From Macrostomum lignano (Eukaryota): 64,000 nucleotides of DNA. Positions 1 through 64,000 of the stretch are shown here, piece by piece (within the stretch, counting starts at the first letter, position 1; each line of letters begins with the position of its first letter). The position numbers were made by a program, and so were the translations under genes. The stretch spans positions 142,608-206,607 of the forward strand of contig NIVC01002080.1 of assembly GCA_002269645.1 (NCBI GenBank). Direction: 5' to 3'. The notes beneath the pieces were generated by a model. The model was not told the origin of the DNA. It searched no databases and saw nothing but the letters and a program-made list of their open reading frames with translations.

Positions 1-18
1 ACTTCTAATAGTAGTGCT

Positions 19-23765: not shown

Positions 23766-24324
23766 GCGTGCCTGCGCAACAGCATGTGCTCAGGAGCCAG
23801 CGGAATGGGCAGAGTTGCCTTCAACGCTGGTTGTGGGACGGTGTGCCGCAGCCCTCCTAGAATGATTATCATTTTACTCTAGGGTCACTCATTGGAGGGT
23901 CACTCGGCCTCTGCATCGAGCGTCGGGTAACACGCGAGGTCACCCTAAGACAAATCTATTTTTCTCGTCCAGCAGAATCTCGCGCGCGCAAATCCCAGGA
24001 GAGAATTCGTTCATTGAAAAAAGACAAGCTAAGGGTTTTAATTCTCCTCACTCGCTTTTTCAATACAGACGGCTCTGCCTAATCCAGAGCTGCCACGCAA
24101 ATCCGTTCACCTGGCCTTCCTGACACTCGCTGCTTTTTAGGGCCGTGAGATCGGGTGGGACAGGGGGGCAGGGGACAATGCACTTCAAGCTCCCTGCCCT
24201 GTCCAATCCAGCCATCTCTTGGAAGAATTCTCCAACCCAACCCCCCCTTCCATAGCTTCAACTATCGCGTAAAAGCGGGTCTAGAAGCTTAGAAGCAGCA
24301 GCTTCAGAAGAGAGGAACTCAGCC

Positions 24325-37734
<13,410 letters not shown>

Positions 37735-40946: not shown

Positions 40947-41249
40947 ATGCCCCGACTGCTTGCCGCCTTTCTACTGCTTTCGGCCTGTGCGATTCTGGCC
41001 GCCAACTGCCTGCCGACTTCTCCTCTGTCAGGCCGATTCCAACAGCGGCAGCCTCATCAGCTTAGCCGGAGTCTGGCTGCCGGTGATCAGGCCGACTGGC
41101 TGACGCTCGCCGACGCTCTTCGACTGCGCCAACTGGACAGGCTGGTGGGCGAGTTGCCAGGCGAAGACGCTGGATTTGATGAGGCCCAGCAGGAGAAGCG
41201 CGGCTTTCGAGGCAGCCTGCGATTTGGCTCGAATTTCGGCAAGAAGTGA
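40947..41249 (+). CDS. Neuropeptide precursor (100 aa); predicted amidated peptide GFRGSLRFGSNF-NH2
   Basis: Hydrophobic signal peptide MPRLLAAFLLLSACAILA, acidic spacer, then KR-GFRGSLRFGSNF-G-KK (dibasic flanks plus amidation Gly). Confidence 0.8.
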   Translation: MPRLLAAFLLLSACAILAANCLPTSPLSGRFQQRQPHQLSRSLAAGDQADWLTLADALRLRQLDRLVGELPGEDAGFDEAQQEKRGFRGSLRFGSNFGKK

Positions 41250-43505: not shown

Positions 43506-44504
43506 GAAGCAAGAAGCCAATCTTGTCAAGTAACATCCTTCAACAGACTAATTTGAAGTCCTAGCTAGAAAGGCCTATTTGAAATTCAAATTGAACCTTT
43601 TTCATTAAAGTGACTGTGCTGCATAGTTTCTATGGAGTGTCAACAACCACGAGGTCGTATAAACTACTCTAGCGTTAAAATCTAATCTATCCTCGTAGCT
43701 AATCTGATTCGAAAGCAGTTCGAAAAAAGAGCTGTGGTAATTGCAACACAATTTTATCTTTGAATTCCAACTAGGGCGTGGCACAATAGCTATTGTGTAA
43801 ACAAGCTTGAATGAATGATGTAGGTTTAAGGCGGGTGCATTGAAATTTCTGTTACAATCGATATTTTAATTCATTTTGTTCCCACACCCTGTCCCCTCTG
43901 CAATTTCAGGTAGATTGATGATTGCTTGGAGCTCAAAATTCTAACAAGTGGGCGTCTACAAAAACTAAAAAGGAAACTAAGAACTGATCTGAACTGCCCA
44001 GCAATGTTTAAAAATGGTTTTCTAGTGGCTGCCAACCCCATCCCCGTATCAATTACTACAACTTAAGCGGGTGTTTAATTAGCAGGATTTAAATAAACAA
44101 AATGAAACAGAAGAGACGCAATTAATTGTTCAGTTTGAAAAGTCCGGAAAATTTATTGCAATAAAGTCGGATGCCAATTCCGATGAAGAGTTTTTACATC
44201 TGCTTTTTTAATTTACCGTTAGAGTTGATCGCTGATCGCAAATGAATGGTTGAAAATTTGACGTACGTACTGTATGATACTGTATGATACTGTATGATAC
44301 TGTATGATACTGTATGATACAGCAGTATGTCATATTGAATGTTATTTTTTAGCCATGAGCTTGTTTTGTGTAATCAAAAACAAAACGGGAGAGTTTCACA
44401 AAGCACTAAATATTTTATGCAAAAGCTCGAATCTTCACAAGCTAAACGCTCAAAACTTCACCAAGGACCACTGCAATTGGCCATATACAGTGGTCCTTGA
44501 ACTT

Positions 44505-44890: not shown

Positions 44891-46899
44891 TCATATTCTT
44901 CGAAAGTAGTACGAGAAAGTTTTTGGTTTCTATTTGCTTTTTAAGCTGCTCTTGCGAGTAATTTCTGTTGGGATTTATAAATCCGAAAAAATCTGCAGAT
45001 TCAGATTTGTCGTAGTTTTTGTAAAGCCAATGCGAAACAATATTGAATCTCGAGGCTAATCGCTTTCCCCTGTTCACGAGTTTCTTGGTTTTCGAACTTA
45101 CAAGCTTAAAACTCGCATTAATTACCCGAGTCTGCTCACCGGGTGCTCAGCCAATTGCCAATCGGCGGCAGATTATATGAATGTGACCGACAACATTCTT
45201 CGACGAATTTACATGTAACCGCGCGGACTACTCAGGTAGTTAGAAAGGGCTACTTAAATAAGGGGTCGGGAAACGGCCTAAGTCATGGTGATAAAAGCTT
45301 TAAACCTGAATGTACGACATTTACAGTTCGATTTTCTAACTCAGAGTCAAGACAATGCTGGTGAACGAGACACATGCACATTTACGATGCATATACACAC
45401 TCATCTTCCACTCTTCTTCTTTTTACAACTCTTCCACTCAAAGCATAAGCTATTTCAATAAAATATTGAATTAAGATAGAGATTACACAAATGTACTACC
45501 AGTTTAAAGTAAAGCTAAAGTGAGTTAATTTAATTTGCTTTATTGAACATGCCACGTCTACATGCATGTAGTACATGTACATGGATTACTTAAGCAGGAA
45601 GAATAAGAAGAAGAAGAAATCGATAGCTGGAATTTGAGACGAAGACAGCATTGGTCAACAGACTTCGTGGTTTGATCTATGTCATGAAGCACTGGAATAT
45701 TCCGCGAATACATGTGCCAACGGAATTCTAATCAACATTTTGAAGGCAAGATATCTGCGTTATGTCAAATTTGGATGACCAGATAGGAGCCACGTGCTGA
45801 TTCGTAACGTATGCGAGCAGAAAATTTACTTTACATTAAGCTTTTGTTTTGTAAAATTTATACAGTTGATATAACGAAGCGTTTGCAAATATCGCGTTTT
45901 GTTTGAATCGTGACATTTGAAAATAACAGTTTCCACGACGCCTGAATTCTCCTTACGTTGCGGAGAGGTATCGTAAAACAGAAGCGTGCTCACGCTCGAA
46001 ACTTCACGCTAGGCCGAAAAAATGCCGGTTTATTATTATAAACTGTAAACTTCGCATTGTCCAAAAGTAGTACTGGAAAGTTTTTAAAGTTGTAGAAGTG
46101 GTAATTTTTAATTAATTAGCAATTTGATGTTTACTTTTCTCCATCTTATTTATAGCTAGCATTTGTATAATTATAATCTCATTTTCATTTCATCCTGTTA
46201 TGTTCTGTGCCTGTATTCTGTTTTGATATTTTTATCATCAAACAAAACATATTGTCAAGTCTTTATTCTTTGTTATCCTATTTTTTATTTAATATTGTCA
46301 CTTTTCTTAAAAATGTTTTTTATATTTTAAAAAATTGAGATTGTAGCTAAAAATGTTGCGACTTGCATCTGTATTGTGTATCTGCCTAGAGAATTCGATC
46401 TCAGTCTAAATTTGGTTGATTGTCTTTTCTGCCTCTAGTCTTTCTTAAAATAATATAGCAAAAATCAATGTATTAACTAATTGTTCTTTTTAAATTAAAT
46501 TGTTTTATATTTTTATTTAATTATTATTGGTAACTAGTTTTTAGGTCCTAACTATAACTTATTAAAGCTATGCTGCAAAATTAAAAGCTATATTGCAAAT
46601 TTTATAATGGAAATATCATAGCTATATTATAGAGTAGGCTTAAATATAAACTTTTTATTGATAGGCTAGCATTAACTATTTTTAATATTATTAGTCTATT
46701 AACTCAGTCTTCACTGAGTTTTATCTCCTTTATTCATTGAATCAAAGTAAGGTATTACAAAAATCAAAATTGCAAATAAAAACTTTTTAAAGTTAAGACC
46801 TAATTCTAAGTCTATTTAGCAATTTATATCTTTATAAGAAATTTATCTAATAATTATTATACTCTATTTTGATTTAAACTTCAGAACATTTCCTTCCTG

Positions 46900-48659
46900 A
46901 TGCAATCAGCACTAATTGCAATACTGGGTGTAATGTTTCATCTGCTGGCCATGGCCACAGCTGAAGTTGTATTTTATCCTGAGCTGAAATCATCTGGCTG
47001 CGAATGGTCTGAATGGCAGTGCAAGGAGCATCAGACAGAATGCATCCTTTTTAGAGAGAAGAATTGCTCTTCCTTCATTCTGCGAGAGTATGATCAACTT
47101 CGCCAGGGAGTTAAAGGCATAAGTTGCAGATCCCAGTACTCATTCAACTGTCTGTCTGAACCCCGATTCTTGTCATACACCAGCTTCCATCCGATGTGGT
47201 GCTCTTGGCAGAGCTGGCAGTTTTGGAGCTACGCCTGCATCGATGCCATTTTAGAAAAACACTCCTGGCTCTCCAGCGCTCTGTCGGAGTATAAGCGTGA
47301 GCTTAATGAACTTCTCTTTTTAGTTCGTGAGTAACTAGTGACTGAGTTTGTGGCTCAGTTCATGAGTGAGATTATGAGTGAGCTTATGGGTAAGTTTATT
47401 AGTGAATGAGTTTGCGAGTGAGATCATGAGTGAGTTTATGGGTAAGTTTATTAGTGAATGAGTTTGCGAGTGAGATCATGAGTGAGTTTATGGGTAAGTT
47501 TATCAGTGAATGAGTTTGTGAATGAGTTCATGAGTGAGTTTATGGGTAAGTTTATCAGTGAATGAGTTTGCGAATGAGTTCATGAGTGAGTTTATGGGTA
47601 AGTTTATCAGTGAATGAGTTTGCGAATGAGTTCATGAGTGAGTTTATGGGTAAGTTTATCAGTGAATGAGTTTGCGAATGAGTTCATGAGTGAGTTTATG
47701 GGTAAGTTTATCAGTGAATGAGTTTGCGAATGAGTTCATGAGTGAGTTTATGGGTAATTTTATCAGTGAATGAGTTTGCGAATGAGTTCATGAGTGAGTT
47801 TATGGGTAAGTTTATCAGTGGATGAGTTTGCGAATGAGTTTATGAGTGAGTTTGTGGGTAAGTTTATCAGTGAATGAGTTTGCGAATGAGTTCATGAGTG
47901 AGTTTGTGGGTAAGTTTATCAGTGAATGAGTTTGCGAGTGAGTTCATGAGTGAGTTTGTGGGTAAGTTTATCAGTGAATGAGTTTGCGAGTGAGTTCATG
48001 AGTAAGCTTATGAGTGAGTTCATGGGTGAGTTCATGAATACGAGTGTGATGAGGGTTCATGAGCCCATACGTCCATGAGTTGAAGATAATCTGATAAGAG
48101 TTAATAAGTCATTGGTGAGCATGATCAGAATTTACAAGTGAACCAGGAAAACGATTATTTTGCAGACATCAACAACGGCTCCCTGTGGCTGAGACAGCGC
48201 AGCCGGCACTGCCGCTGTCCCAAAGGCAGATACGGCACCCAGTGCTCCGGCCCCAGTCAGCAGGTGGCCTTCACGCCGCGGACCGCCGATCTCGCAGTGA
48301 ACGGCGAGCTGCTGATCCCCGCTAGCCGTCAGTCGGCCTGGTGCCCCTGGTCCGCCTGGTCCGACGACTGCAGCTGCTTGTCGCAGATAGCGACTTGGGT
48401 GAAAAAACGTCGCAAACGAGTCTGTCAATTTGGCACGCCAACAGCGTCTGGCTGCAGCGGCTCCGCCATCGACACTCAACTGTGCTGGTGCGAACCCAGG
48501 CTCTCGAGTTCGTCGTCAACTACGCCGAAAAGAAATTCGAAAACGGATCTGGGACTAATATTTAGCAAGCCGATGTTAATAATGGTGTCCATTCCGCTGG
48601 GTGTGCTGCTCTGCCTGTGCTGCATCTGTCGGGCAACTCGACGGAGTGACCGGCTGTGA
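46900..48659 (+). CDS. Type I membrane protein with TSP1-like WSxW motifs and an EGF-like module; exons 46900-47326 and 48139-48659
   Basis: Signal peptide; CEWSEWQC, WCSWQSW, CRCPKGRYGTQC, WCPWSAWSDDCSC..RRKRVC..C.G; TM LIMVSIPLGVLLCLCCIC; short basic tail. C|GTGAGT donor and ACAAG acceptor, phase 1. Confidence 0.8.
47345..48035. repeat. 52-bp minisatellite rich in GTGAGT/GTAAGT in the TSP1-gene intron
   Basis: Period 52 (CATGAGTGAG at 47581 and 47633). Confidence 0.93.
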
Positions 48660-48714
48660 GTGCGCTCCTTTTTGCGCTGAGTAGAATGCATGAGGGGGCT
48701 TCTGGGACAAAATT

Positions 48715-49110
48715 TTTCACCTCCATAATCCACCTAAATCCATCCATATTATCCCTGACAGAATCAGAAAAAAAGGGGGGTCGCACCTGCTCACAAAACA
48801 TCGTCCATAATCCCATTAAATCCATCCATATTATCCCTGACAGAATCAGAAAAAAAGGGGGTCGCACTCGCTAACAAAACGTCCTCCATAATCCACCTAA
48901 ATCCATCCACATTATCCCTGACAGAATCAGAAAAAAAGGGTAGGGGTCGCACTTGATCTCAAAACGTCCTCCATAATCCCATTAAATCCATCCATATTAT
49001 CCCTGACAGAATCAGAGCATAACAGGTGTCCTACTTGTTCCGAAAACTTCAAACATAATCCCATTATAATCCACTGACATCCACCCATAGCATCTCTAAA
49101 ACAATCAGAA
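48715..49110. repeat. ~82-bp tandem repeat (4 copies plus a degenerate fifth) at the left flank of the Polinton
   Basis: ATCCCTGACAGAATCAGA at 48751, 48833, 48914, 48999. Confidence 0.88.
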
Positions 49111-49226
49111 AATAATCTGCATTCTTCTCCCCACATTCAATCCGCAACGTGCTACCAGATCCCTAAGACTTTAAATTATCAGCGCAGGGTGCTCATCCTC
49201 CGAAAAAATCTAAATTCTCAATAAAA

Positions 49227-49466
49227 ATGCTTCCAGTTGTCTCCCGAGGTTCTTATTATACTCAGCCTCATCCATTGTACAAATCCAAGTACCGATGCAA
49301 ACTTGAATGCAGCGAATACATGAGAAAATATTGGCCCGACGTTGATATCAATGTCCCTAATATTAATAAAGCACTTAAATCTCACTGGTTTGAAAAACAT
49401 GGAGTAACCTATGTAAAAGATTACGACAGCTACTATAACTTTGCAGAAATCATTAAGCAATTGTGA
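49227..49466 (+). CDS. Small hypothetical protein (79 aa) of the element
   Basis: AAAAATG start context like the other element genes; stop converges on the minor capsid gene stop. Confidence 0.5.
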   Translation: MLPVVSRGSYYTQPHPLYKSKYRCKLECSEYMRKYWPDVDINVPNINKALKSHWFEKHGVTYVKDYDSYYNFAEIIKQL

Positions 49467-49470
49467 TTTC

Positions 49471-50334
49471 TTACATTCTCTCAATGATCAACGTCAATAC
49501 AAACTCTTCCCCATTAAAATCAACGCCCATCCCATCTTCAGTCTCAAACTGTAGCACAATCTCGTGAATCTCCTTATTACTCAATACAACTCTTTTCACT
49601 GGATTTGGTTTCTCTACCACCATCTGTCCTCCAGCAACAGAGTTGGAGATGTTGTACAAAATATTCGTTCGCTTTCCCTTAAATACCCAATCAAGACTGA
49701 GATTGCTTCTGATTAGAATATTCAAACCCTTTACAATGTCTGCAATATTGGGTGCTAAGAACAAACCGCTTACACTTTCCCGGACCATTCTAACAGTCCC
49801 CGATGCTTGAGTGGCGGTCCGCGCCGCGGATTCTGCCTTATAAACTTTCTTCTCGAATCCTAGTTCCCTATACCAAGTGTCATCTTTAAACTCAACCTCC
49901 GCATTTTTGTGAACTTGCATGACCACTCTCATTACAGTGAGATCATAGGTTAGTTTGACAGGGAACAGTTTCTTCTCTGGCTTACTCGCATCAGGTGTCT
50001 CAAAATGGCCTCTCTTAGTAAAGACATTTTCTAGAAAGTTATTGTAGGTATCCACACTTTGCGTGCTCACATGGAATACCACAGGGTCTTCTGCTGCACC
50101 TTTCCATTTGTAATAAAACTTATTATTTGCTGCCATCACATTGGGAACGTTTGACCAACCAGTGAAGTCGTTAAGATAGACATGGTAATTAGCACCTGGA
50201 TCCAGGCGAATCGCCTGCTCTAATTTTTCAACAAATATCCCGTTTGAGTCATTAATTCGCCCAGTTATTGTAATAGGAATGCTCTCTTTAGAGTGAGAAA
50301 CTATATTATTTAGTCTTTCAGCAATCGCTTCCAT
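49471..50334 (-). CDS. Minor capsid protein (penton, single jelly-roll), intact
   Basis: 287 aa; C-terminal pattern IRSNL...KGKRTNILY.....G.MVVEKP...I.EI.LQFETEDG..VDFNGE.F.L.L typical of Polinton pentons; adjacent to MCP. Confidence 0.82.
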   Translation of the reverse strand: MEAIAERLNNIVSHSKESIPITITGRINDSNGIFVEKLEQAIRLDPGANYHVYLNDFTGWSNVPNVMAANNKFYYKWKGAAEDPVVFHVSTQSVDTYNNFLENVFTKRGHFETPDASKPEKKLFPVKLTYDLTVMRVVMQVHKNAEVEFKDDTWYRELGFEKKVYKAESAARTATQASGTVRMVRESVSGLFLAPNIADIVKGLNILIRSNLSLDWVFKGKRTNILYNISNSVAGGQMVVEKPNPVKRVVLSNKEIHEIVLQFETEDGMGVDFNGEEFVLTLIIERM

Positions 50335-50357
50335 TTTTTTTCACAAAAAAAAAATAT

Positions 50358-51644
50358 TTAAACTTTACTGGATGAATTGTTGATCATGTTAAGCTTCACC
50401 TTCCTCTCAAATGCATAGATAATGTACAGGTCCACGGGTGTTGCGGTAGTCCTTTCAATGTTAGTCACGATATTCACAGGGCTGTTATCAGTAGGCATTT
50501 GTCTGGCAGACACATCAGCGCCAAACATCGGATATAGAGTTCCATATTGAAGAGCAGTGATAGCAATTCCATTGTTCTCTTTCACAGCCAAGTCGACCAA
50601 CTCGCTATAAAATTTGCTAATCTTGTTCTGACTGAAATCTCCATTTTGTGGCAGTGCAGGGTAAAGATTATCACTGATTTCATGCTGAATGGACCGCACG
50701 TCTCCATGCATGTAGCGTATGATGCTATTTGGGTTTCTCATGTTAATAATGATATACCTTGGATTGCTGCATGATCCCTCTTTGATGCGGATGTTTGTTC
50801 TAGTTTCGTTTCGCTCATCTCGACACATGTAGGCCGTGTATGCAACATCAATGTCCTTCTCTATTGCCTTAAGATAGTCTGCTTTTAGTGCAGTCTTTGG
50901 CTCAATGACTTCCAAATACAGCTCGATTCCGGTTAGCTTCACAGCCATCCCAGTGTGGTCCGCCCCAGTCCACAACACTCTACTGCGATCATCTCTAGTC
51001 AGTCTAAATGTGTAGCTAAAGTTGCTAGTCAGTCGATTAAATGTATTACAGAATCCACTCATGAATCTCAGTGGTACAAATACATCAACAGACCGATACT
51101 GCGGGTTCTTAGCAGCATCATCAGCACCTTGCAATGCATAGTTGTATCTCTTCTTCCTATTTTTATAGCCACTGTCATTGATATCTCCTTCTTTTTCATC
51201 TGCAATAAAACCCGCACCACTTCCCAACTGAATAAAATCAGGATTCTCGATCAAACAATGAGCGTCATAGACAATTCCAAAGTTGGCGATTCGCTCCAAC
51301 TCTGTGCTCCCATTCGATACACTAAACTCCTTGAACATGTACGCCCAAAAGTTACTGATCAGAGCCACATCCGCATCATGCTTGTCAACGTTAGCACGAG
51401 CCGCATCCGCACCACCTTTTGTCTTGAATTGAAATGTCATATGGAAGCCGCTCTTAAGACTGTGCACACTAACCAGAGACGAACATCCATTGTATGTAAA
51501 TGTCAGTGTTTGACCTGGACCCAAATTAGTTTCATTCTGGTTCTCGTGACTCGGAACTCTAACTTGTGTCGCTTTGATTGTGCTATCATCACTCAAAATA
51601 AGCTTGTTAATTTTGTAGAAAACTGGTGTCAGTCGGTCGTTCAT
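50358..51644 (-). CDS. Major capsid protein (double jelly-roll), intact
   Basis: 428 aa, beta-strand rich; N.WAYMFKE.S...G.TELERI, VFVPLRFMSGF, KLTGIELYL motifs; size and position next to the penton as in Mavericks. Confidence 0.82.
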   Translation of the reverse strand: MNDRLTPVFYKINKLILSDDSTIKATQVRVPSHENQNETNLGPGQTLTFTYNGCSSLVSVHSLKSGFHMTFQFKTKGGADAARANVDKHDADVALISNFWAYMFKEFSVSNGSTELERIANFGIVYDAHCLIENPDFIQLGSGAGFIADEKEGDINDSGYKNRKKRYNYALQGADDAAKNPQYRSVDVFVPLRFMSGFCNTFNRLTSNFSYTFRLTRDDRSRVLWTGADHTGMAVKLTGIELYLEVIEPKTALKADYLKAIEKDIDVAYTAYMCRDERNETRTNIRIKEGSCSNPRYIIINMRNPNSIIRYMHGDVRSIQHEISDNLYPALPQNGDFSQNKISKFYSELVDLAVKENNGIAITALQYGTLYPMFGADVSARQMPTDNSPVNIVTNIERTTATPVDLYIIYAFERKVKLNMINNSSSKV

Positions 51645-51674
51645 TTTTTAACTAAAAATAAAATAAAATAAGAA

Positions 51675-52874
51675 ATGAAGCGGAAAAGTTCATATCATAT
51701 CTCTGAACTAGAAAAGCTGGCGCAAGCAGAGAAACGAGTTACCGGACTAATCAACAAAGAACAACAATCTTACAATGAATTCGTCCAAGCAGCCACCGAA
51801 TTTCACAAACCCGGATACACAGAAGCGAAGAAAAACATCGACACTGTGAAGGAAACAATTGATGATATTCAAGAGAGCCAGTTGCAAAACACATTGGGTA
51901 AAATCCCATCTTCACCGGAACAACCACAGGCTCAGCAACCAGGACAACCAGTGCAGATGAATGTGACGGATAACTTTTTTTGGCCCCGTAATGGTTGATG
52001 GAAAATATATTTTTGGAATTAGCGTCTGGCGAAAAGAAATTACCAAGGAACCGGTGGATTACAACATTGAAGTGACAAAGGAAAATATTTCAATCAATAA
52101 AGGTGCAGAAACTAAAGAATCCCCTACACTAAAACTTTACTTGATTACATGACTAAAAATCTAGAGAAAACGTCTGAAAAGAAGCTAAAAAATTACAAAG
52201 ATCTTGTTACCTTCGCTTTAGAGAGGGACATAGACATTCTCAAGAACAACGGTGTTTTGAAAGTTTTACATGAAAACAGGATTGACTTGAACAGGTTTAG
52301 AAAATACAAATACTTTAAACAATGGTTTGGTTTGCCAGATCAAGAAGAGGTCATAAGACAACAACCACAACAACAACAGCCACAACAGCAGCAACCAAAA
52401 CAACAACTACAACAACCACAACAGCAGCAACCACAAACACAACCACAACCACAACAACCTCCACCGCCACAGCAACAAATCACACCCGAACAAGTACTAG
52501 AAGCGCTTGAAAAAGCAGGGCCAAATGAGATTTCCCAGTACAGAAACCAGCGCCCAGATGAATGGCGACAATTAGAGCGGCTCTCCCCAGAACGAATGAA
52601 GCGAATCAATGACAGAGTATTCACACCTCAACAAAGACAAGCGCCACATGACAGTTCCTCCTCTGACCAATCATTCGAATCACCTCCAAGCTCTTCCGGA
52701 AAAGGCATGCCTGAATTCTACAAGCGGTTAGCTGTTCTTCTAGGAGCGGCAAAGACCGGAATGAAAGACGAGAATAGAAAAGAATTTGTCAACATCCTGG
52801 ACAAAATGCTTGAGAGAAAATATATCGATAAAAGAGCAAGAGAACTTTTGCTTTCACGGTTTAACAAAAAATAA
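51675..52874 (+). CDS. Probable single ~400-aa Maverick accessory/core protein split by indels (ORFs 51675-51998 and 52149-52874), with a Q/P-rich linker
   Basis: Frames can be joined across T7 (~51975), T4 (~52088) and C runs; C-terminal SGKG..F.KRLAVLLGAAKTG..EFVNILDKM helix resembles a motif conserved in Polintons (PZ-type assignment tentative). Confidence 0.6.
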
Positions 52875-52890
52875 ATTTCTATTTAAAAAG

Positions 52891-53271
52891 ATGCCAATTA
52901 TTTTCGAAAAAGACATTGACAAATACTACGACAAAGAGGAACTTAATCTCATTAAACGCGGATCTGGACTTTTCCCTGCAGGCCACTATCCAAGAAAAGA
53001 ACGTTCTGGGAACGGTCTTGCCGATTTGATCGCTCAAGGGGCCAAGATTTTTAAGGTCATTGGAGAGAACAAAGAGAACATCAAGAACGTTGCTGAAGCG
53101 GCCGGTAGTGTAGCCACAGCAGCCAAAAAGATTAAAGATACGGTTCATGAAACCCGGAAATCAATACCAGATATTCAACCCCTTGCACCGAGTGCAGATA
53201 GTGTCGATCCAGCCATCTACGCAAAGATGAGAGCTGAATATAAGAAAGGAGGCGGTTTTAAATTTGACTAA
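52891..53271 (+). CDS. Small virion core-like protein with GxG motifs and an amphipathic helix (126 aa)
   Basis: ATG at 52891 in AAAAAGATG; KRGSGL, RSGNGLADLIAQGAKIFKVIG, terminal KKGGGFKF. Confidence 0.65.
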   Translation: MPIIFEKDIDKYYDKEELNLIKRGSGLFPAGHYPRKERSGNGLADLIAQGAKIFKVIGENKENIKNVAEAAGSVATAAKKIKDTVHETRKSIPDIQPLAPSADSVDPAIYAKMRAEYKKGGGFKFD

Positions 53272-53467
53272 TTTGGTGCACCCTGACGGTAAAAGAGGTG
53301 TGAGGGTGTAGGACTAGTCGGATGTAGGACTAGTAGAAAAAAAAAGACACACAACCCGAAAAAAAGACACACATCCCGCAAAGAGACACACACATACACA
53401 TCCCGAAAAAAGACACACGCGTCTTAAATACACAATTTTAAAAAGAAAAAGTTTTTTTACATAAAAA

Positions 53468-54266
53468 ATGGACTTCACAAACGACTTTCATCCCCACTGG
53501 ACACGCAATCAGATAAAATTTGCTCACAACGAGATAATTCCAGGGCACTTCCGATGCATTGTTGTTGGCTCATCTGGGTCAGGGAAAACCTTCAGAGTTT
53601 TTAACATGCTCCTCAGACCTGGATTCCTCGATTATGACACACTACATATCTATTCACCCACTCTGTATCAAGATGAGTATAAAATGCTAGTAGCGGGCCT
53701 ACAGAACAAACTCAACAAGGAAATATTATTCAATGTTTTAGACATCAAAAAGACCTCAACAGCAACCCGGAAGTTGTAGCCACTGAATACGCAAAGCACA
53801 TCCCAGACAATGAAAAATGGCAAAATTTAAAGTTTTCACTTATGGAGATCCACAGATAGATCCTAAAACTAAACTCTTACCTCAACCTGATGAACTAGAA
53901 AAGGGGAGAAAGCACCTGATTGTCTTTGATGACTGCATGACCGGTCCCCAGAAACAGATAGAAAATTATTTCACCCGGGGTAGACACAATAACTGCAATG
54001 TTATTTACATTGCCCAAAACTGGTTTGAACTGCCAAATAAAACAATTAGAGGTAACTGTAATTTGATTCTCCTTTTCCCAACCATACCACAGGATCGACT
54101 GAAACGATTTTATAATGAAGTCATTGCCCCAGCTCACATTACATATCCAGCTAAGAACTCTAACAGAACAATATCACAGGAGGAATTTGTTAACATATGC
54201 TATGAAAAGTGGAACCAACCTTATCAGTTTGTCATGATTAATAAGGAGAAAAGAATTTTAATTTAA
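53468..54266 (+). CDS. A32/FtsK-like genome packaging ATPase (two -1 indels in A5 runs near 53750 and 53815)
   Basis: Walker A GSSGSGKT, Walker B LIVFDD, then RGRH and IYIAQNWF motifs. Confidence 0.93.
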
Positions 54267-54283
54267 TTTTTCATTTAAAAAAA

Positions 54284-55057
54284 ATGTCTATTAATTTTGC
54301 AGGTGAGTCAACTACAAGCAACAGCACTCTCACAACTTCCTTCCTTGACAAGCGCTACATTAACATTGATGAAGAGATCCCAGAGATCAAACTGAATAAA
54401 AACAGACTGAAAGCCCTAGAGCGCTCCATGCACCAGTTGCAAATCAACATGGAAGATCTCAGGCTTAAAGTAGCTAGACAGAAGTTTGACAGTGATAAGC
54501 TTTATGTGCCGTTGTTAAACGCAACTAATGAACTAAGGTCAGAAATAACTTCGGCGGTCTCGCTAATCAACGGCTTGAGATCATCAGTTAATCTTCTGGG
54601 AAATTTCACTGATAGACGGATGCGTATTCTTGAAGAAAGAGTTTTCACAAACACAGTTAAAGTGAGGAATTTAGAAGAGTTCATGAACCAGTCAACAGCG
54701 TTGCATGATAGAATTAAAGAAAACGTCGCAACCAACACATGTAAAGTGAGGAATTTAGAGGAGTTCATGACTCAGTCAACAGCGTTGCATGATCAAATCA
54801 AAGTAAGAATTACTGCAAATAAAGTCTTTGTAGATTTAGTTTTTACCGAATGGCAGAAATCGGTGAGAAGAATCGGTCGTCTTGAACGCTTGCATAATCT
54901 CAAAAACATTGACGCTGAAGAGGCACCACAGACCACAAGGGAAACAAGTGATCCAACCGACTTGTTTGAGATCATGCGTAGAATGGAGCTCACAGATAAT
55001 GAAAAGGCAGATTCAGAGATTTGTTGCCGTCACTGCAGACGAAGCAATCAACCGTAA
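54284..55057 (+). CDS. Coiled-coil protein with a 29-aa internal repeat (fibre/spike-like candidate)
   Basis: N-terminal LDKRYINID; heptad pattern; VKVRNLEEFMNQSTALHD repeated as CKVRNLEEFMTQSTALHD. Confidence 0.7.
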   Translation: MSINFAGESTTSNSTLTTSFLDKRYINIDEEIPEIKLNKNRLKALERSMHQLQINMEDLRLKVARQKFDSDKLYVPLLNATNELRSEITSAVSLINGLRSSVNLLGNFTDRRMRILEERVFTNTVKVRNLEEFMNQSTALHDRIKENVATNTCKVRNLEEFMTQSTALHDQIKVRITANKVFVDLVFTEWQKSVRRIGRLERLHNLKNIDAEEAPQTTRETSDPTDLFEIMRRMELTDNEKADSEICCRHCRRSNQP

Positions 55058-55115
55058 AACAAATCTAACCACCACCAACTAGTTGCCGATTTTTTTTTTA
55101 AAAATTCCCTAAAAA

Positions 55116-55760
55116 ATGGATGCTCAAAATTCTTTTTATGATCCGAACGCTTCCACAACACCTAGTGCACCTAGTGCACCCCAATATGAGCAACAAAAAC
55201 TCTACCCCGTCATTACTTGTAACTCTCAACAGTTTCGACTAGTGGAGATTCAAAAAATGCGAGATGATCTTGAAAAAAAATATTTTCCACAACACAAAGA
55301 AAATTAAGCGCTATGACAGCCACTGTAAATTTTTCGACTACAGCAATATGATTCTAGGATCTGTGTCTGTTCTATCTGGATCTGCTGCAGCTGTCTCAGT
55401 GTTGCCAGCCATCACAGCCCCAATCGCAATCCACTTGGTTCAGTAGGTGCTGCATGTGGACTTATTTCAGCAATTACTGGAGCATTAGCGCGAAACAGGC
55501 GAAAAAAACTAAAGCAGCTACAGGAGAAGCAAGTAAAAGAGAAAGGGGTGCACACATCAATCATAGGGTACATTTCAAGGGCAATCGAGGATAAGTTCAT
55601 TTCAGAGGATGAGTTCAAAACCATTCAGGATCTTTATGAACAATCAATTCGAATGAACTTGAACATGGTCGGTACTGATGACATGAGTCAGCTGAGAAAT
55701 GAACTCGAGAAAGTTCTTCAACATTATGTGGAAAGAAGGACAACGAGAAATGCACAATGA
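55116..55760 (+). CDS. Reconstructed ~214-aa membrane protein: PSAP/LYPx late-domain-like N-terminus, hydrophobic hairpin, ISEDEF C-terminal helices (two compensating indels)
   Basis: Removing one A from the A8 run (~55278) and adding one C at ~55433 joins ORFs 55116, 55264 and 55548 into one frame. Confidence 0.72.
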
Positions 55761-55764
55761 ACCC

Positions 55765-56166
55765 CTATGAAACACAGCCAAGAATAATTTCCTTGTAGGT
55801 CTTTCGTGTTTTGGTCATTGCATACAAAACAGTCATGCACAGCTCACCGCAAATATCACTGCTAAGACCTTGAAGAATAAAGTCTGAGTGGTAAATTTTT
55901 TTATTATTTTTCCCCTTCATATAATTTCTTAGCTCTTCTGGTACTGCCGTCCCATAGCTATCGAAGTAATAACACTTGTGCTTGCGATCGGGATCAATCA
56001 CCCAGCAAACCCAATGAGATCCTGGCTTATCGGTGGTGTCAAAGTTCATGATGCCGCATTCCTTTCTTAGAGGAAAATCAGGCAGAGTGTCCCTCATAAA
56101 TATTCCTCTAAAGTTTGGGATTTCCAGTTCATTAGCCAAATCTTCAAGAAAGTTATTTGTTGTCAT
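55765..56166 (-). CDS. Adenain-like (C5 family) capsid maturation cysteine protease, intact, 133 aa
   Basis: GSHW (His), YYFDSYG (Asp), LQ...ICGELC (Gln/Cys); ATG at 56166 in AAAAATG context. Confidence 0.93.
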   Translation of the reverse strand: MTTNNFLEDLANELEIPNFRGIFMRDTLPDFPLRKECGIMNFDTTDKPGSHWVCWVIDPDRKHKCYYFDSYGTAVPEELRNYMKGKNNKKIYHSDFILQGLSSDICGELCMTVLYAMTKTRKTYKEIILGCVS

Positions 56167-56238
56167 TTTTATGAGGTTTATTAAACTTTCTCTCAAACCT
56201 AAACCTAAACTCCACCTCCTAAACCTAAACTCCACCTC

Positions 56239-59200
56239 CTAAACCCAACTTCCACCTCCTAAACCTAACCTCCAATGCCCGAACGGTAGACTGTTAATAT
56301 TGTCATCAAAAATGAATCTCTTGTTATCTGCACCTGACAGCCCAATCTTCTTTTGCTGAATTGTGTGAATAATATGGTTTTTAGATTGTAGCTTTGAGAA
56401 CTCATGTGATGTCTTTTTGTTGCAATTCAAGGCGTCTCTGTATTCAGCTTCATTAATTTCCTTCCTAACCACACGTTTCGGAATTCCCTTTGATTTTTTG
56501 ATTGGGTCTGACGACTCACATTTTACAAAATAGGACTTTGCTCTCAACCCTAATGAATTCAGTGATTATGTCACCAGCAATCTCGTCCTTCATTTTCCCA
56601 ATCACTTTCTTGTTAGTGGCGTCAAACACTTGATCGCCATTCTGTGTCCTGCAAGATTCATCATACTCAGACAAGTCAAACAAATCTTTTTGCTGCAGCA
56701 TGTCCTGATAAATGTCTTCTGTTTGAATGTCCATAATAAAACTGTCTGTGTCAGTGTACAAGAGTTTCATTTTATCCTTGTACTGCTGCTTCATGCATAG
56801 AAGAACTGGTACATCAGACGTTTTGATTCGTCGAGTACAGTGACACCTGTATAGATCGGCTTGCGCAGCGTCACCTTGTTTTGTAAAATATGATACACCT
56901 AAGTAGCTATTAAAGATATGGAGTTCTTTGAATGTTGGCTTTGACATATTTGCCTGAATAACAGCAGGCTCTGATGAGGTAACAAGTTTCAGGTTTGTTC
57001 TTTTCCGCTCATTCTCAAGAGTCTTGCCATAGACAGAGTTGTTGGCCAACTTAAAGAGGTTCTTGTCAAATTCGTTGGTTGCTTTGGTCCTAAACTGGGT
57101 GTTCTTATCAATGTAGGGCTTCATCCACGCTTCCTCTGTAAATGTAAGAGCCCTGTGAACTTTGGTGACCCTGCAACCAAGTGAGATAAAATATGAAGCA
57201 GTTTGTAATGGATTTTGTAACGTGTCTTGTTGTTTAGATTCTGTGTTAGTTTCTCTGTATGTTCTTTTTCTGTTCCTGACAGGTGCCAAGTTCCATTATT
57301 ATCATTGGGAGTTTCGATTATTTTCGGGCACTTGATGTTCTCTGGGAAGGGTGGAAAGTCAGAGAAATAGTCGTGAAGCTCTGGTGGAATGTAAACATCA
57401 ACCTCATAAATGGCAGCCAATGAAAAGTCCCACTTTAGTTCTGATGAGGGTAGCCATCGAAAATCTCTAACTGGAAGATCTTGACTCATCGCCCACCCGT
57501 AGAGATTATTAGCGTCCAAGTAAGTAATGTAGTTTGAGGGCTGCTCCTTATTGTAAGATTCAATGTAGGGATTGTTTGCTTTTGCATACCTGTTAACACA
57601 AATTGAGATCCCCCCTCGCTTTGACGATTCAACAAAATTGTACATGTCAATGTCTGTAAGAAGTTCAATGTACCAATCTGGATCTTGATCCCATTTCATT
57701 TTAAGCAAAGATTCCCAGCTAGTGGCAGGCAGAGACACATAATGTGCTGGATCGAGGCCATATGCTGTGTACCAGGTGTATCTGAAGGTTTCAAACACAT
57801 CGGCCAGCAGAAACACATCTGTGAAGAGGTAAAGCAGGTGATACTGGAAAAAGTTTTGACAATTAAAGTAATTATAGACATGCTTCGCGTGCTCATAGTC
57901 TTTGTCAGAGATTCCAGAGTCTGTTAGCTTTGAAAAGAACTTTTCTTGTGGTGGTAAACCATCTTCAAATACGTGATACCCAGTAATATTCTCATAGGGG
58001 TAGAAGCCTTTCTTTCCTTAAAGTTTAAATGATTCATCAGTGTTGTTAATTTTACTTGCAAACATCTTTGTATATGTACATTTTTCATCTCTTAGATTCT
58101 TGCTTAGTTCGTCTAGACTGGCAGCTAGAAATTGATATGAATCCTTCAGTCTTATTTTACCTTCACCTTTACCCGAATTATCCTGTTTAATATCAACACA
58201 CTTAAACTTCTCCTTGTTCTCTGCGATGCAATCAAGGTGTATGTCTGGAATCATGCCGATTTTTTCAACTATTAAATGCATGTCATAGTTCTTTGCGTTG
58301 TGACAAAATATCGTTAGATCATGAATGTTCGATTTTAGCTTTAGATTACAGGTGTTATGCGCTGCACCTCTAAATTTCCGAGTAAAGTGGCAGTGGTCCC
58401 TAACGGTGGGGTTTTTAAAATCAGTGCAAGTTAACTGTTTCCTGCAGATGTGGCAATGAGTTGCTGATAGGAAATTGCTTTCATCCTCCTCAGTCATCAT
58501 TATTGGAACAGGTTGAAGGGTGCTAATCACTTTTTGCAACTCTAACATTCTGGCAATAAACTGCTCCACACACTGCTCTCCAAAGAAATAATTATACTCA
58601 ACAAGTCCTTTTGTATTAATAAAGGCATATGCTACTGAATTGGGGACATGTTTTTGAGTTTGAGTTTGTTTTTGAGTTGGAGTTTGTTTTTGAGTTTCTG
58701 GCACGATTGAGCATTCGAAATCAGCATATACAACAAATGGGAGCTTCTCCATCTTATGATAGTTCTTAAACCGGAGATACTTCTCTTCAGCTGAAGGAAG
58801 AGAGCAGTTTGTTGGGTGATCCTCGCATGATAATTCATGCTCTGCTAGTTTTTCAAAGCGCCCAGGCCCACTGTAATGCTTAAGGCACAAGCGGCAGATG
58901 GCAACAGCCTCGTGATGATTATTCAACTGCTTGTGAATGAGTCTTGAAAGATTTTAATCCAAACATAGTGAGCCTCCTCTAGTAAATTACCAATCACTAG
59001 AAGATCCACTTCAGTCCGCCTTTTCCCCTCAGGATCTAAAACGTCTTTGCTACATCTGACCGGTTGAACTTTCTCAGTTTTCTCACTCCACTCAAAGACT
59101 GTGATTCTAATTTTGTTATTAAACACTTCTTCTAGCTTTGGGATCTGAGAGATCGCCAAGCCTCCTTTGTCAAACCTGATTCCCTTCTTTTCGCATTCGA

Positions 59201-60118
59201 TGAGATAGTAGTTGAAATAATTTTGATAATTTGAGGTTCTTTCGGGTGGTGAGGTACACTAAAAAGTGCAGAAAGAACTGCCCATAGAGCACAGCAATTG
59301 TCTTTATTTTTAACATTTATGCAAGCTTTTTTGCCGGCTAGCTTATGCGGGAGCTCTATATAAGAGGAGGCTTTAAGTGGGTCATATTTCATGACCATGA
59401 CAGTTGCTCTTTGAATCCCTCCACGACCCATCCGGAACCTCTGGATGTAAACGCTTCAATTTTCTTATGACATCTTGAAGGAAAGGATCCAGTGTGTCTG
59501 TTGGGTGAATGGCTTTGCCTTTGTTGTCATGTAATACTCGAGATGCTCAGTGGGTTTCGCAGGCATATAAAACGCAATCTTGAATGATATCTGTAGTTTA
59601 AAGGTCTTGTGTGTTTTGAGCGTGTGATCAACAACTGATTAGATGCTGTCTTTATAGTCGTAGATGTTTGCGGTGGTATCCTTAATTGGGATTGTGTACT
59701 CTATGTAATGTTCTGTAAACTTCCTCTGTGCAAAATTAATCTCTTCAATGGCAAGCTCCGACTCTTTTAAATGGATTAATTGCTCTAATTTCTCTTGTTC
59801 TTGCTTATTTTGTGGGTACTTTGCTTTTTCACCAGTGAGAGTTTCGTATTTGTTAACTAAGTTGCGACTCCTCTCTTGGTGTTCCTTTGCAGGATTTTTT
59901 ATAGGCGCATACTGGTTGAATTCTAATTGGTTGATGATTTCCAACTGTTTTTCATAGCTTCCCAGGTGACTAGGGTCGGTGTTGAACTTTTGTTTGCATG
60001 CTTCTCTTAGTGAATTACTTTTGTCTTGAAATGAGACGCCTTTTAAGGTTGTAGGGTAGGGTAAATGAGACGAAAAATATTTGTTGACTAAATCTCTTGC
60101 TGGATTGGCTTTTGGCAT
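56239..60118 (-). CDS. polB: Protein-primed family B DNA polymerase (~1290 aa), fragmented by indels and one in-frame stop at 58018-58020
   Basis: ExoI VYADFE, ExoII HNAKNYD, ExoIII TDVFLLADVFE; Pol motifs YLDANNLYGWAM, KLANNSVYGK, YTDTDS; C-terminal DNKRF..PFGH. Confidence 0.95.
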
Positions 60119-60400
60119 TTTTTTCTCTAAAATATAAAATAATTTTGAGGGTTACCACCCTGATAGAAAAGTTGAACTGTTTCTACATCCTATAAGTAGT
60201 GTTAGGTTTATGAAGCTGGATAAAGTGGGGTTTAAAACCTCATCACATACGCATTATTGTAAACCCAGCATTGTGCAGTGTCATGATGCTTTGACAATGT
60301 CAGACTTGCTTATAGAATTTTCATTCTCACAATCATCACGATCGGGGCAGTGCCTTAACATAGTCTCTTGCAATCTCTTCTCTCTAATTGCTTTACCTTG

Positions 60401-60718
60401 TTATACCTTTGTCTCTTGCAATCTTTTGCAATTCAGCTGGTGGGCTCTATCATTCCCAGCTTTAACAGCAGTTGCTACACCTCCAGCTACACCACCTGCG
60501 GCACTTACAGCGCCTGCAATGATCGGAATAAGAGCTGCTAATGGTAGGATTCCTCCTGACTTTTCATCTGTGATGCTGTGTCTTTGCTCATTACACTGAA
60601 CTATTTGCTGCACGGGATCGATTTTTACTTTGGCACCTTTAATTGATATAAGACCTGGTTTCTTTGATTCAATGATTTTATTGAGTTTATTGATGGTTCT
60701 GGTTTCAATCTTTGTCAT
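60401..60718 (-). CDS. Adenovirus pX-like core protein precursor (C-terminus probably frameshifted)
   Basis: SGG-ILPLAALIPIIAGAVSAAGG resembles adenoviral pX GG-FLPALIPIIAAAIGA, preceded by a basic region. Confidence 0.75.
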   Translation of the reverse strand: MTKIETRTINKLNKIIESKKPGLISIKGAKVKIDPVQQIVQCNEQRHSITDEKSGGILPLAALIPIIAGAVSAAGGVAGGVATAVKAGNDRAHQLNCKRLQETKV

Positions 60719-60967
60719 TTTTTATTTTAATATTTTAATTAATTTCCGTGTCAGCTGGTATCACTAGGAGTTCAGCTCTAGTGAATGACCGCGTGGGGGA
60801 TTTAGGGTTAAAGGCCTGAGATAAAAAGTAATAGTCTCCAGAGTCGGAGGTAAAATGTCTGTCTATTTTATGTACATCAAGGCTGAAGTATGGATCTGTA
60901 GCTCTTCTTTTGGTGTCTTTCTCTAGCTCTCCAGGTAGATATAAAAAGCGTAGAAACTCAGAGTTTG

Positions 60968-61765
60968 TCAGTATGTATGGTGATTCAACTCCTGGAAGCT
61001 TAGGGTAGTTCGAGGTGTGTTTTGTGTTGTGGTGTTGTGTGGGGTTGTCGTGTTGTTGTCTGTTCTATGAGATGACTTAAGTTCGACAGTGTCTTGTTTA
61101 ATTGCATGGGATGGTTTCAATCCAGTCATGCGCGTGACTTCATTGTTCAGTTGCTCTATAACAGTGGGGAGCCGGTCTGTCCACTTGGTATAGTACTGAC
61201 CACTTTTTAGTTTCAGCTCTTCAGCTGTCTGCTTAGTGAATAGCCTCTTGGCTAGAGTTAGATTGAATCTTTCCACAAAAGCCTGGTCTCTGTGCAAGTT
61301 TGTTCTGCCATAGCGAATCTCTGTGTTTTTCTTTTCCATAAGGGATTTCACTGCACCCATGAATTCTTTACCGGGTCGGTCATAAAGATTTGGGGTATGT
61401 GAGCGGAGAGTTTTTATAAATATCTTGAGGGCGGCTGCAACTGCTCTTGACTTCTTCGTCTTGAGTGGGCGAGCTTCCTTATATCTGGAAGCAATGTCTA
61501 TAATTGTAAGAGCATACTTGTAGCCTGAGTCATTGGGGAGAAACAGAAGATCTGCTTGGTGCGCCTCATTAGGTTTATAAATACTGAAATGGGGCCTTTC
61601 AAATTTTACTGGTGGGAAATAGACTTGGTAGACTGCTGCTTAGAGAGCCACTTTTCTACTTAGCTTTTGGTTCCTTACTAGTTCTGTGAGTTTGGTGACT
61701 GCATTTTTTCCTACAAAGAATCCTTTGTCGCTGTAGTAGAGTTTTTTAAGTTTCTGATCTGTCAT
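60968..61765 (-). CDS. int: Retroviral-type (rve, DDE) integrase, frameshifted
   Basis: Reconstructed HQADLLFL..YKYALTIIDIASRY (D), TDPGKEF (D), QAFVERFNLTL (E); N-terminal KKLYYSDKG. Confidence 0.92.
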
Positions 61766-61795
61766 TTATTTAAAAAGAAAATTTTAAATAAAATA

Positions 61796-62188
61796 ATGCA
61801 GCGCTCTGGTGGTAATAGATTCACATGGACTGATAGAAAAGCTTCCTCATCCAAACAAAGGCTGGACACTTCCGGTAAAATATTGTGGGCCTTTGAATCC
61901 ACTTGAAATACAGTTAGATAAAAACAATAATCCAAATCCTGGGCATGAGCCTGTGAACGAGCTAGACTCTGTCTGCATGTGGCACGATGTTAAATATAGA
62001 GATTTTCCTGAGGAGAAGAATCGCTGGGACAAAGAAATGCTTAGAGACTAGACAATATAGGGGCTTCAAGCGGGTGGAAGGAATCGATCGCTCGGAAGCT
62101 AGTTAAAGCTGTTATTTTTGGTAAGACAAAACTGGGGTTGGGGGTCGGCGGCTGTTTGAAAGAGCTTTGTGTTGCACGCGCCAAGTAA
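61796..62188 (+). CDS. Parvovirus VP1u-type phospholipase A2, frameshifted at both ends
   Basis: KYCGPLNPL (Ca loop), EPVNELD..C.WHDVKY (HD dyad); the frame continues after one missing C as LDNIG...KTKLGLG. Confidence 0.88.
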
Positions 62189-62655
62189 AAATTAGGAATA
62201 CTGCTGAAAGAGCTGGGGGTTGAGAGAGCAGAATGATTCAAGCAAGAAAATTCAAGAGAAACTTTTTAAGAAAATAACAGCAAAAGAAAAATAAATGGAT
62301 GACATGATATACTTTTGAGCAGCAGTTAGTTTCCCAAATTTGGTACTCACACAGGCTGCCACTCGAAGGCCGCTGCTACAGCCCGCGCATCTTTAAAGAA
62401 GAAAAAAGTAATTTGATATTAGCAATCTCCTTACTTTCTTTTTCCTTTTAAAGATGGAAAAAAATTAACTTGTCTGAAACAAGAAAGAGAAGATTTAGAG
62501 AAGAAGAGAAGAAGAAGAGAAGAAGAGAGAGAAGAGAGGAGGAGAAGAAGAAGAAGAAGAAGATTTAGAGAAGATGAGAATTATCTTCTTATTATTAAGA
62601 AGATAAAGAAAAGAAAAGTTATATTTATTTACCATTTTTACTATTTTTATTTACT

Positions 62656-63230
62656 ATTCTTTTTTTATTTGAATAACACCCATGCTCCAATAGGTTTTAT
62701 ATTTATTTGAACACATTAACATGTCTTCAATATCATTTTTTAAGGTGTAAAGTTCCTCAAATGTTATATTTAGCTTAAAAAACGAGGATAATCATGTAAT
62801 GTTTTACTAAGAGACAACATTTTTCTAATAGTGCTTTTAGAATATGTTATCTCATGTCGTTGCAAAAACTCCAACCTGATCATCACAACTTTTACATTTA
62901 ACAGTTTCTTCAGGATGTTCTATTCTATGTTTCGCTGCGTTGTGGTTAAGCCATACACCACAGATGTATGTGGCAATGAGCATACGATTATTACATCTTT
63001 TTAAACTTGTGACTGCCGTCTGTAGTTGTTCTTCTACAGATAACGGCATATTCGTATCAACAATAGAATAGGGGTGATTAAATTCATCGACCCCTTCAAA
63101 TTCAAATACTTTTGCGCAAAGATATTGATGAAGCGTCTCACCAGTTGGCCGTAGTTTTTGCTTCTTTACTTTTACTTTCTTTCTGCTGGTTGATCTTGAT
63201 CCTCATCTACATCCATGCGCTCTTCATTTA
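62656..63230 (-). pseudogene. Probable frameshifted accessory ORF (includes 62852-63049)
   Basis: Frames join into MDVDEDQ..KLRPTGETLHQYLC..MPLSVEEQL..CKSC..ITYSKSTIRKCC..YKTYW. Confidence 0.4.
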
Positions 63231-63829
63231 ATTTTTTTGATCGATCTTCTTAAATTGCCACAACTAGGTACTAAGGGGCAATCTAATGTAACTTTTAAAT
63301 GAATTAAATCATCTTCAGATAAGAGTAGTTCGTTTTATTGTTATCTTTTGCTAACTGATTTAGCTGTAAAATTTTAGAGAAGAGAGATAGATCTGGTGTG
63401 ACAGACAAGTCAGACATTTTTAACCGAGTAACTCTTCAAAAGTAGTTGTATAAATAAGCTTTCTTCCTTACCGACAGACTTTGGGGGGGAGGAGGTGTCC
63501 GCCTGATAGCGGCGAGACGACTTGGCTTTGGGATAAGGGGAGAGAATTGAGTAGACTGAGAAGAGCTGTGGACGAGGGACAATGGAGGATCGGGGGTATG
63601 GTTTTGGTTGGCCATACGTATGCCATACGTAGCATACCCATACGTGCTGCGGGATTGACTGTAGGTAGAGAAGTGGAAAGAGAGAGAATTGCTATGTAGA
63701 ATAAATGCTCACGGTGAGGAGAAGCTTGTGTATAGGAAGAGAGTTCTCTCTGTATACGGGGCCTGCGTACTCTGAGTTAGTAGAGGGCATAAGCTTTTGC
63801 ATGGGGGAAGAGATATTTGCTCTGTACAT

Positions 63830-63945
63830 GTTCGGCGGCGGAACATTTGTTGGGCTGAGGAACAAATGTTCGGCTGAGGAACATTTGTTCGGCTGAGGAA
63901 CATTTGTTCGGCGACAGAACATTTGTTCGGCTGAGGAACATTTTA
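63830..63945. repeat. 19-bp tandem repeat (GAGGAACATTTGTTCGGCT)n
   Basis: About 6 units with a palindromic GAAC..GTTC core. Confidence 0.9.
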
Positions 63946-64000
63946 GCTGGCTCTGTAGCTGGTGCCCTAGAGGGTAGTTTTACATTTTCCCTTAGATAAA

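Follow-up and report, generated by a model that had tools for sequence, protein, structure and literature searches.

Genes at the locus and in the host flank

The window, i.e. the whole 64-kb stretch of DNA that was analysed, contains no N and carries a Polinton-like element that adjoins a host gene, in a surrounding genome of invertebrate-like character. Outside the element, exon 1 of the host gene lies at 46900..47326 (+), an ORF with an N-terminal hydrophobic stretch and a donor at 47327 placed by eye. Its last exon forms the left flank at 48166..48659 (+), is Cys/Trp-rich with a membrane-like stretch, and follows an acceptor ending at 48165; the splice into it preserves the frame, as read by eye. 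The intron after exon 1 contains a 52-bp minisatellite. The last exon has no Pfam match, and its GC content is ~0.60 versus 0.39 in the element.

The first-pass annotation had described the element as a Polinton of the adintovirus type with genes for penton, MCP, ATPase, protease, pPolB, integrase, PLA2 and a pX-like protein. This identity is borne out by Pfam and structure matches and by hhalign, and all of these genes were confirmed where they had been placed. The penton (minor capsid protein, 287 aa) is unbroken at 49471..50334 (-). Its model (pLDDT 76.8) matches the mavirus penton (E 4e-9) and adenovirus penton bases best, and 13 homologues are found at 39-64% identity. The double jelly-roll (DJR) MCP at 50358..51644 (-) is likewise unbroken and of full length, with 428 aa as compared to 422-438 aa in its relatives. 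It matches the Pfam DJR family PF21738 with an E of 4e-5, under the curated cut-off, and the PF21738 MCP of contig L005 with an hhalign probability of 98.1, while the best Foldseek matches are the MCPs of Sputnik, PBCV-1 and mavirus (model pLDDT 52.5). The structure matches of both proteins and the hhalign result agree with the jelly-roll folds expected for 49471-51644, and the DJR capsid with a single jelly-roll penton that marks a Polinton is present.

The protein-primed family B polymerase of Polintons is also found, in a fragmented gene. The pPolB gene at 56242..60118 (-), with an EndoVII insert and a vOTU-like stretch, is recognised from Pfam and from profile fragments in order: at least nine natural fragments are collinear with a 1227-position profile built from 37 homologues. 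It carries 9-10 breaks, with stops near 58019 and probably 59640, and frame changes near 59490, 59415, 59240, 58950, 57190, 56895, 56800 and 56540 (all on the - strand). In Pfam, DNA_pol_B_2 is matched above the cut-off (E 6e-6), and PF03175 scores 25.9 bits against a cut-off of 25.8. The PolB of Alpha adintoviruses has an N-terminal OTU domain; fragments of the window gene align with the homologous stretch in relatives, with Cys and His placed by eye against L005, and no Pfam profile for the OTU domain matches the pPolB frames.

A packaging ATPase and a C5 protease accompany the polymerase, the former split and the latter whole. The A32-type ATPase (53468..54266, +) matches Pox_A32 at E 3e-4, under the cut-off, and its support is raised by a profile of relatives. 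Against this 243-position profile it appears as two fragments with Walker A and Walker B in different frames and a break between ~53710 and 53875, whereas in the relatives one ORF of 230-266 aa encodes it. The adenain-like C5 maturation protease (55765..56166, -) is unbroken and contains the His, Asp and Cys motifs. Its match to Pfam Peptidase_C5 is under the cut-off (E 4e-4), and a single fragment spans positions 5-121 of 137 in the relatives' profile (E 8e-37).

The retrovirus-like rve (DDE) integrase is encoded at 60968..61765 (-) by a broken gene with an in-frame stop near 61641. Against Pfam rve (PF00665) the E is 2e-6, under the cut-off; against a profile built from six relatives it is 2e-26, with matches at positions 1-24 and 64-238 of its 334 and none in the C-terminal part. 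The PLA2 gene of parvovirus type (61796..62185, +) occupies at least two frames. It matches PF08398 (Phospholip_A2_4) above the cut-off with 35.5 bits (E 1e-8), two fragments follow the PLA2 profile in order, and no sequence match was found in PDB. The gene for the pX-like core protein (60401..60718, -; Adeno_PX, 31.1 bits against a cut-off of 25, E 2e-7) is separate from that of PLA2 and on the opposite strand.

Among the remaining frames, the three at 55113..55760 (+) represent a conserved Polinton gene of helical, membrane type; two of its fragments (E 0.009 and 0.002) follow, in order, a profile made from the L003/L004/L005 homologues. Judging from the frame layout, 51675..52874 (+) is probably one conserved Polinton gene in three overlapping frames; it resembles L005 4813-5712 by eye only, the profile match being weak (E 0.43). 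This was the fourth of six small L003/L005-derived profiles run against the window, three of which gave no convincing match. A 126-aa basic ORF (52891..53271, +) has no family match at the cut-off and may be a core-protein candidate. For the 257-aa ORF with an internal repeat (54284..55057, +), a fibre-like role is a guess, the best Atlas score of 0.85 being a lead only. The 79-aa ORF at 49227..49466 (+) has weak matches below the cut-off only, and a 116-aa open frame without a start at its 5' end (62852..63202, -), for which no family matches were found, is probably what is left of another gene of the element. NCBIfam (12 frames) and PHROGs (11 frames) returned nothing at the cut-off or meaningful, and gasdermin, which is not expected in Alpha adintoviruses, gave no Pfam match among the frames scanned.

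Relatives of the element

In the MCP tree, built with 30 of 146 distant matches, the window MCP falls inside a 10-row unnamed metagenomic clade with an SH-like support of 100%. Its metagenomic relatives (P0001-P0009 and P0143) include MCPs that are 70-77% (7 proteins) or 44-45% (2 proteins) identical to that of the window, and pentons are 39-64% identical. They lie on hostless contigs of 0.9-5.8 kb and are labelled only 'hypothetical protein', whereas in the window this capsid type comes with the full set of genes and has host genes next to it. No close relatives with DNA context were found with the MCP alignment against viral contigs and metagenomes, nor with P0292 as the query.

The polymerase is, on the basis of its sequence, Alpha-adintovirus-like: PF03175, which it matches just above the cut-off, is the Pfam type of Alpha PolBs, and one piece is 39% identical to the Corynactis PolB, an Alpha reference, over 99% of 298 aa, and the Corynactis coral adintovirus likewise has EndoVII in pPolB. 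The same piece used as a query yielded 14 distant loci out of 26 candidates. In a quick tree of 46 of 130 rows after redundancy filtering, with no Beta outgroup, the pPolB branch is long (1.72) and the window row is left unplaced. The earlier suggestion of an undescribed lineage seems plausible, given that the nearest MCPs are unnamed and the pPolB branch is long. In the literature (titles; most subscription papers and Repbase lay outside the search), no earlier description of a Polinton/Maverick in Macrostomum or flatworms was found.

Alpha adintoviruses constitute the family Eupolintoviridae, formerly Adintoviridae (PMC8502044, PMC12451622). They share integrase, ATPase, adenain, hexon, penton, PLA2 and pX with the window element, which we would tentatively assign as a Eupolintoviridae-like adintovirus. 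The two differ in that Alpha adintoviruses have a fused PLA2X (PLA2 with a C-terminal pX) where the window has separate genes; the window MCP, from another clade, shares no more than 22-24% identity with the classical type, the window enzymes are mostly broken, and TIRs were not found. The Polinton-type IMG/VR contigs L003 and L005 share with the window the ATPase, penton, pX and helical gene as well as the PF21738 MCP, pPolB, protease and PLA2, and in both of them PLA2 and pX are separate, as in the window; the integrase is found in L005. Their gene order is unlike that of the window and identities are ~18-44%. Their pPolB genes are single ORFs of 1294 and 1319 aa and their ATPases of 258 and 266 aa, whereas both genes are split in the window.

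State of the copy and its ends

The "full modules" of the first-pass annotation do not hold, since pPolB is in at least nine fragments and the ATPase, integrase, PLA2 and helical genes are split; penton, MCP and protease are unbroken. By hand tally, the 9267 nt of coding sequence that could be judged contain 13-19 breaks, with 2-3 in-frame stops and about five times as many frame changes. The description of the copy as little decayed is not borne out: in-frame stops are few but frame changes many. The argument from a lack of decay to a young age is wrong in the form given, as none of pPolB, ATPase, integrase and PLA2 reads as one open frame. The open pPolB, integrase and ATPase frames of an intact provirus are absent, and the copy as assembled would not be able to replicate, integrate or package DNA.

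The visible element is ~14-15 kb long within the window, and its right end may lie beyond it; Polintons/Mavericks are 15-25 kb long (PMC6431247). Between the host stop and the first ORF, an 81-bp tandem repeat of 3.6 copies (48720..49016) is either the left end of the element or a host minisatellite. It has no inverted partner in the 64-kb window, and we rejected it as a TIR because another minisatellite in the window likewise starts at a host stop codon. Polinton/Maverick ends typically have a 6-bp TSD and AG...CT termini. Neither TIR nor TSD was found across 45000-64000: the best terminal matches are 12/15 (22 pairs), with no TSD among the 20 matches listed. Since the right end is possibly beyond the window, the absence of TIRs is no proof of their loss, and TIRs are detected in only 22.8% of coral elements on average (10.1101/2023.10.06.561300). 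No second copy of the element was found within the 64-kb window.

Among the matches listed, 20 of 24 sequencing runs, all from one organism, contain 52-65% of the element's words, and no RNA run is listed as containing them. Such a share is consistent with a copy that differs by 1.4-2.1% from its family, so that the copy may be fairly recent, and the locus presumably belongs to a multi-copy host family. By calculation, indels alone at 1.5-2.5 per kb would retain 93-96% of words, implying that frameshifting indels account for a minority of the differences. The word share could alternatively reflect parts of the stretch absent from the contigs of those runs.

Origin of the breaks

We consider it probable that the locus is an Alpha-type Polinton of an unnamed capsid lineage, integrated directly downstream of the host gene and since decayed. 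It is most likely a dead copy, with breaks that we infer to be real mutations, because there are 13-19 of them, the in-frame stops are substitutions, the word shares lie well below what indels alone would leave, the MCP branch is long, and no TIR or TSD was found. The ~5:1 ratio of frame changes to stops was counted against decay, as were the private changes at invariant MCP columns (7/131, barely above the 0-6 of relatives); at invariant penton columns, the relaxed-selection comparison gives 4/66.

What an intact ancestor did can be drawn from established knowledge of the family, the window data being gene identities and breaks. Copying of its linear genome by pPolB would have started from a protein primer that the vOTU domain sets free, MCP and penton would have formed an icosahedral shell, and the A32 ATPase would have packed the DNA. 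Adenain would mature core proteins such as pX, PLA2 would help membrane entry, and the rve integrase would insert the genome.

Some of the breaks may be assembly errors, and the excess of frame changes over stops appears to resemble long-read assembly errors in repeats. Extended to most breaks, this would leave the element largely intact in the animal, its frames disrupted by indel errors in an unpolished long-read assembly of a multi-copy repeat. Full-length penton, MCP and protease fit this account, as do the catalytic motifs that can still be read in the pieces of pPolB, ATPase and protease. The 2-3 in-frame stops, word shares of 0.52-0.65 unexplained by indels alone, the unmatched integrase C-terminus and the missing TIR in 45000-64000 make it rather unlikely in our view.

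It is a long shot that the penton-MCP block owes its open frames to selection (host co-option), or was renewed through recombination with a younger copy, while the rest decayed. The 2151 nt of the two genes are free of breaks, with a p of 0.03-0.007 if the block had been named beforehand; chosen post hoc, the longest break-free gap has a probability of 0.13-0.43, which is not significant. Furthermore, the packaging ATPase is broken, and of the 7 end branches in the clade that of the window MCP is the longest, at 0.21 as against 0.08-0.17 for the others. Foreign or misjoined DNA (viral or symbiont, or a distant copy fused at ~49 kb) would suit a junction at a tandem repeat, the lower GC content of the element (0.39, against 0.60 in the exon) and the lack of a TSD, and is highly improbable because more than half of the words occur in 20 runs from 7 studies (6 if one possible source study is excluded) of one organism, so that the sequence goes with that organism, the ~49 kb junction itself being unproven thereby.

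Polintons with the same gene set are common in the genomes of invertebrates, with 20,702 pPolB1 homologues linked to an integrase across 960 genomes (10.1101/2023.08.22.554363), and one further broken copy changes little. The modest value of the decayed copy lies in linking an unnamed, divergent clade of capsids with an animal host and with a full gene order; only intact siblings or particles turning up in the same organism would give it more weight. That the locus provides the first host and full gene map for the clade, and that intact siblings in the host species, or this copy if intact and mis-assembled, make particles, is improbable; if true, natural virions of an animal Polinton could be sought directly in a much-sequenced invertebrate. 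The adintovirus on human chromosome 7 is likewise a relic in the germline, disrupted by nonsense and frameshift changes, but it is Beta-type and far more decayed (PMC8502044).

Capsid genes and gene content

The element is a real endogenous Polinton of the Alpha type; the Polinton kind itself is known, and what is new is a member from a capsid clade without a name. The literature searched, a scope outside which Repbase and subscription journals lie, contained no earlier description of it. The ORF at 50358-51644 (minus strand, 428 aa) gives a weak PF21738 match, and it aligns with the clear PF21738 major capsid protein (MCP) of L005, a Polinton-type IMG/VR contig, with a probability of 98.1. 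Its predicted model is poor (pLDDT 52.5), and double jelly-roll capsids, including those of Sputnik, PBCV-1 and mavirus, make up most of the top Foldseek matches of this model in PDB and BFVD. The neighboring ORF at 49471-50334 (minus strand, 287 aa; model pLDDT 76.8) matches the mavirus penton and adenovirus penton bases. Since both ORFs match known capsid and penton folds, the jelly-roll assignment of 49471-51644, on whose failure the first-pass annotation would have been refuted, is upheld.

Pfam matches in the element comprise A32 ATPase, C5 protease, protein-primed polymerase (pPolB), EndoVII, pX, rve and PLA2, with only pPolB, pX and PLA2 reaching the curated cut-offs. Profiles of the IMG/VR relatives back the ATPase in two pieces (E 1e-18 and 4e-29), the rve integrase (E 2e-26) and the C5 protease (E 8e-37), and a helical gene at 55113-55760 is common to the three contigs L003, L004 and L005. 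Searches of NCBIfam, PHROGs and Atlas gave no assignment for the remaining ORFs. L003 and L005 carry unbroken pPolB, ATPase, MCP and penton genes, with fibre-like genes following the protease; CpG is very low in L003 (o/e 0.15).

Affinity of the element

The pPolB piece matches 7376 of the 8000 scored candidates. Identity among the best 120 of these is at most 49%, and those that bear a name derive from cnidarians, a sponge, a crinoid, an oyster and a dragonfly; they include the PolB of the Corynactis coral adintovirus (39% identical), which Starrett et al. place in the Alpha panel (PMC8502044). The same study gives PLA2 with pX as a mark of Alpha virion modules (PMC8502044); both are present in the element, but as separate genes. 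In a quick pPolB tree built without a Beta outgroup, the sequence of the element is an unplaced long branch. The MCP has 9 close relatives, and a search among 50% representatives gives 540 matches at E ≤0.001. In the MCP tree it falls within a clade of 10 rows whose SH-like support is 100%, whereas the MCP type of L003 and L005 falls outside it. Clade members that were looked up are annotated no further than 'hypothetical protein'.

Probable decay of the reading frames

When aligned to a profile built on 37 full-length homologues, pPolB resolves into at least nine ordered natural fragments; the interruptions comprise 8 frame changes, a clear stop and a further probable one. Profile comparison places the two ATPase halves in different frames, an early stop interrupts the integrase, whose C-terminal part lacks a profile match, and PLA2 and the helical gene are both split. 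In all, 13-19 breaks were counted over 9267 nt (1.4-2.1 per kb); the upper figure takes in those recognised by eye, and the length used for the integrase is an estimate. Penton, MCP and protease have none, which gives p 0.03-0.002 if these genes are named beforehand; because a longest-gap test on break spacing gives 0.13-0.43, we do not claim their selective retention. Searches within the window yielded no terminal inverted repeat, target-site duplication or second element copy. Of the near-complete Polinton with little decay proposed in the first-pass annotation, the gene set stands on Pfam, profiles and folds, but its intactness does not, and the element is most likely dead.

Frame changes outnumber stops among the breaks, as would be expected if these were assembly errors. 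However, only 52-65% of the sampled words from 49000-58900 are present in 20 of the 24 listed runs (one organism, 7 studies, one of which may be the source of the sequence), corresponding to 1.4-2.1% difference if loss is uniform, while frameshifts alone are expected to remove just 5-7% of words. Because word loss exceeds this expectation, in-frame stops occur and the MCP end branch is the longest in its clade, the evidence favors a real, moderately diverged, dead copy, and assembly error seems unlikely, albeit with appreciable weight. At invariant MCP columns the element has private substitutions in 7 of 131, hardly more than the 0-6 of its relatives.

Intact Polintons insert via the rve integrase, and an intact ancestor of this probably dead copy would have entered the genome in this way. 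Polinton replication is described as protein-primed, with the terminal protein set free by vOTU (10.1101/2024.03.18.585575), and DNA packaging in an MCP-penton shell is predicted (PMC8502044, PMC6431247); the ancestor would have replicated and, as predicted, packaged its DNA likewise. Since none of the genes for polymerase, integrase, ATPase and PLA2 is a single frame, the copy as assembled is, judging from its sequence, incapable of protein-primed replication, rve integration and DNA packaging. Its putative residual output, if transcribed, could be capsid proteins or repeat-derived RNA at most.

Genomic setting

The window is animal genomic DNA, with Pfam matches to Rel-homology (NFAT-like), secretin-family receptor and MFS transporter exons and a mariner fragment, and with numerous intronic minisatellites. 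To the left of the element lie a two-exon host gene (46900-47326 and 48166-48659, splice read by eye) and, 3' of it, an 81-bp tandem repeat (48720-49016); element-like ORFs begin at 49227. A 52-bp intronic minisatellite (47339-48037) directly follows the splice donor and has donor-like motifs in each unit.

The NFAT-like gene (1-12700, plus strand) has RHD DNA-binding and dimerisation exons, Gln/Ala-rich regions and introns filled with minisatellites. The mariner transposase N-terminal fragment is an HTH_48 match (E 2e-11) at 6072-6443 on the minus strand, and the receptor (a GPCR) and transporter exons lie at 18289-19248 and 24256-25476, both on the plus strand. Degenerate TTAGGG-like repeats, internal to the chromosome arm, occupy 875-1081, and a 168-bp dispersed repeat is inverted between 7246-7413 and 37047-37214 (95% complementary). 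At 40948-41249 (plus strand), a short secreted-type precursor without a Pfam match, in which a dibasic site is followed by an RF-Gly peptide motif as read by eye, resembles an RFamide neuropeptide gene. A minisatellite with a 46-bp unit in about 50 copies (41231-43508) starts within the last codons of this precursor and takes in its stop codon.
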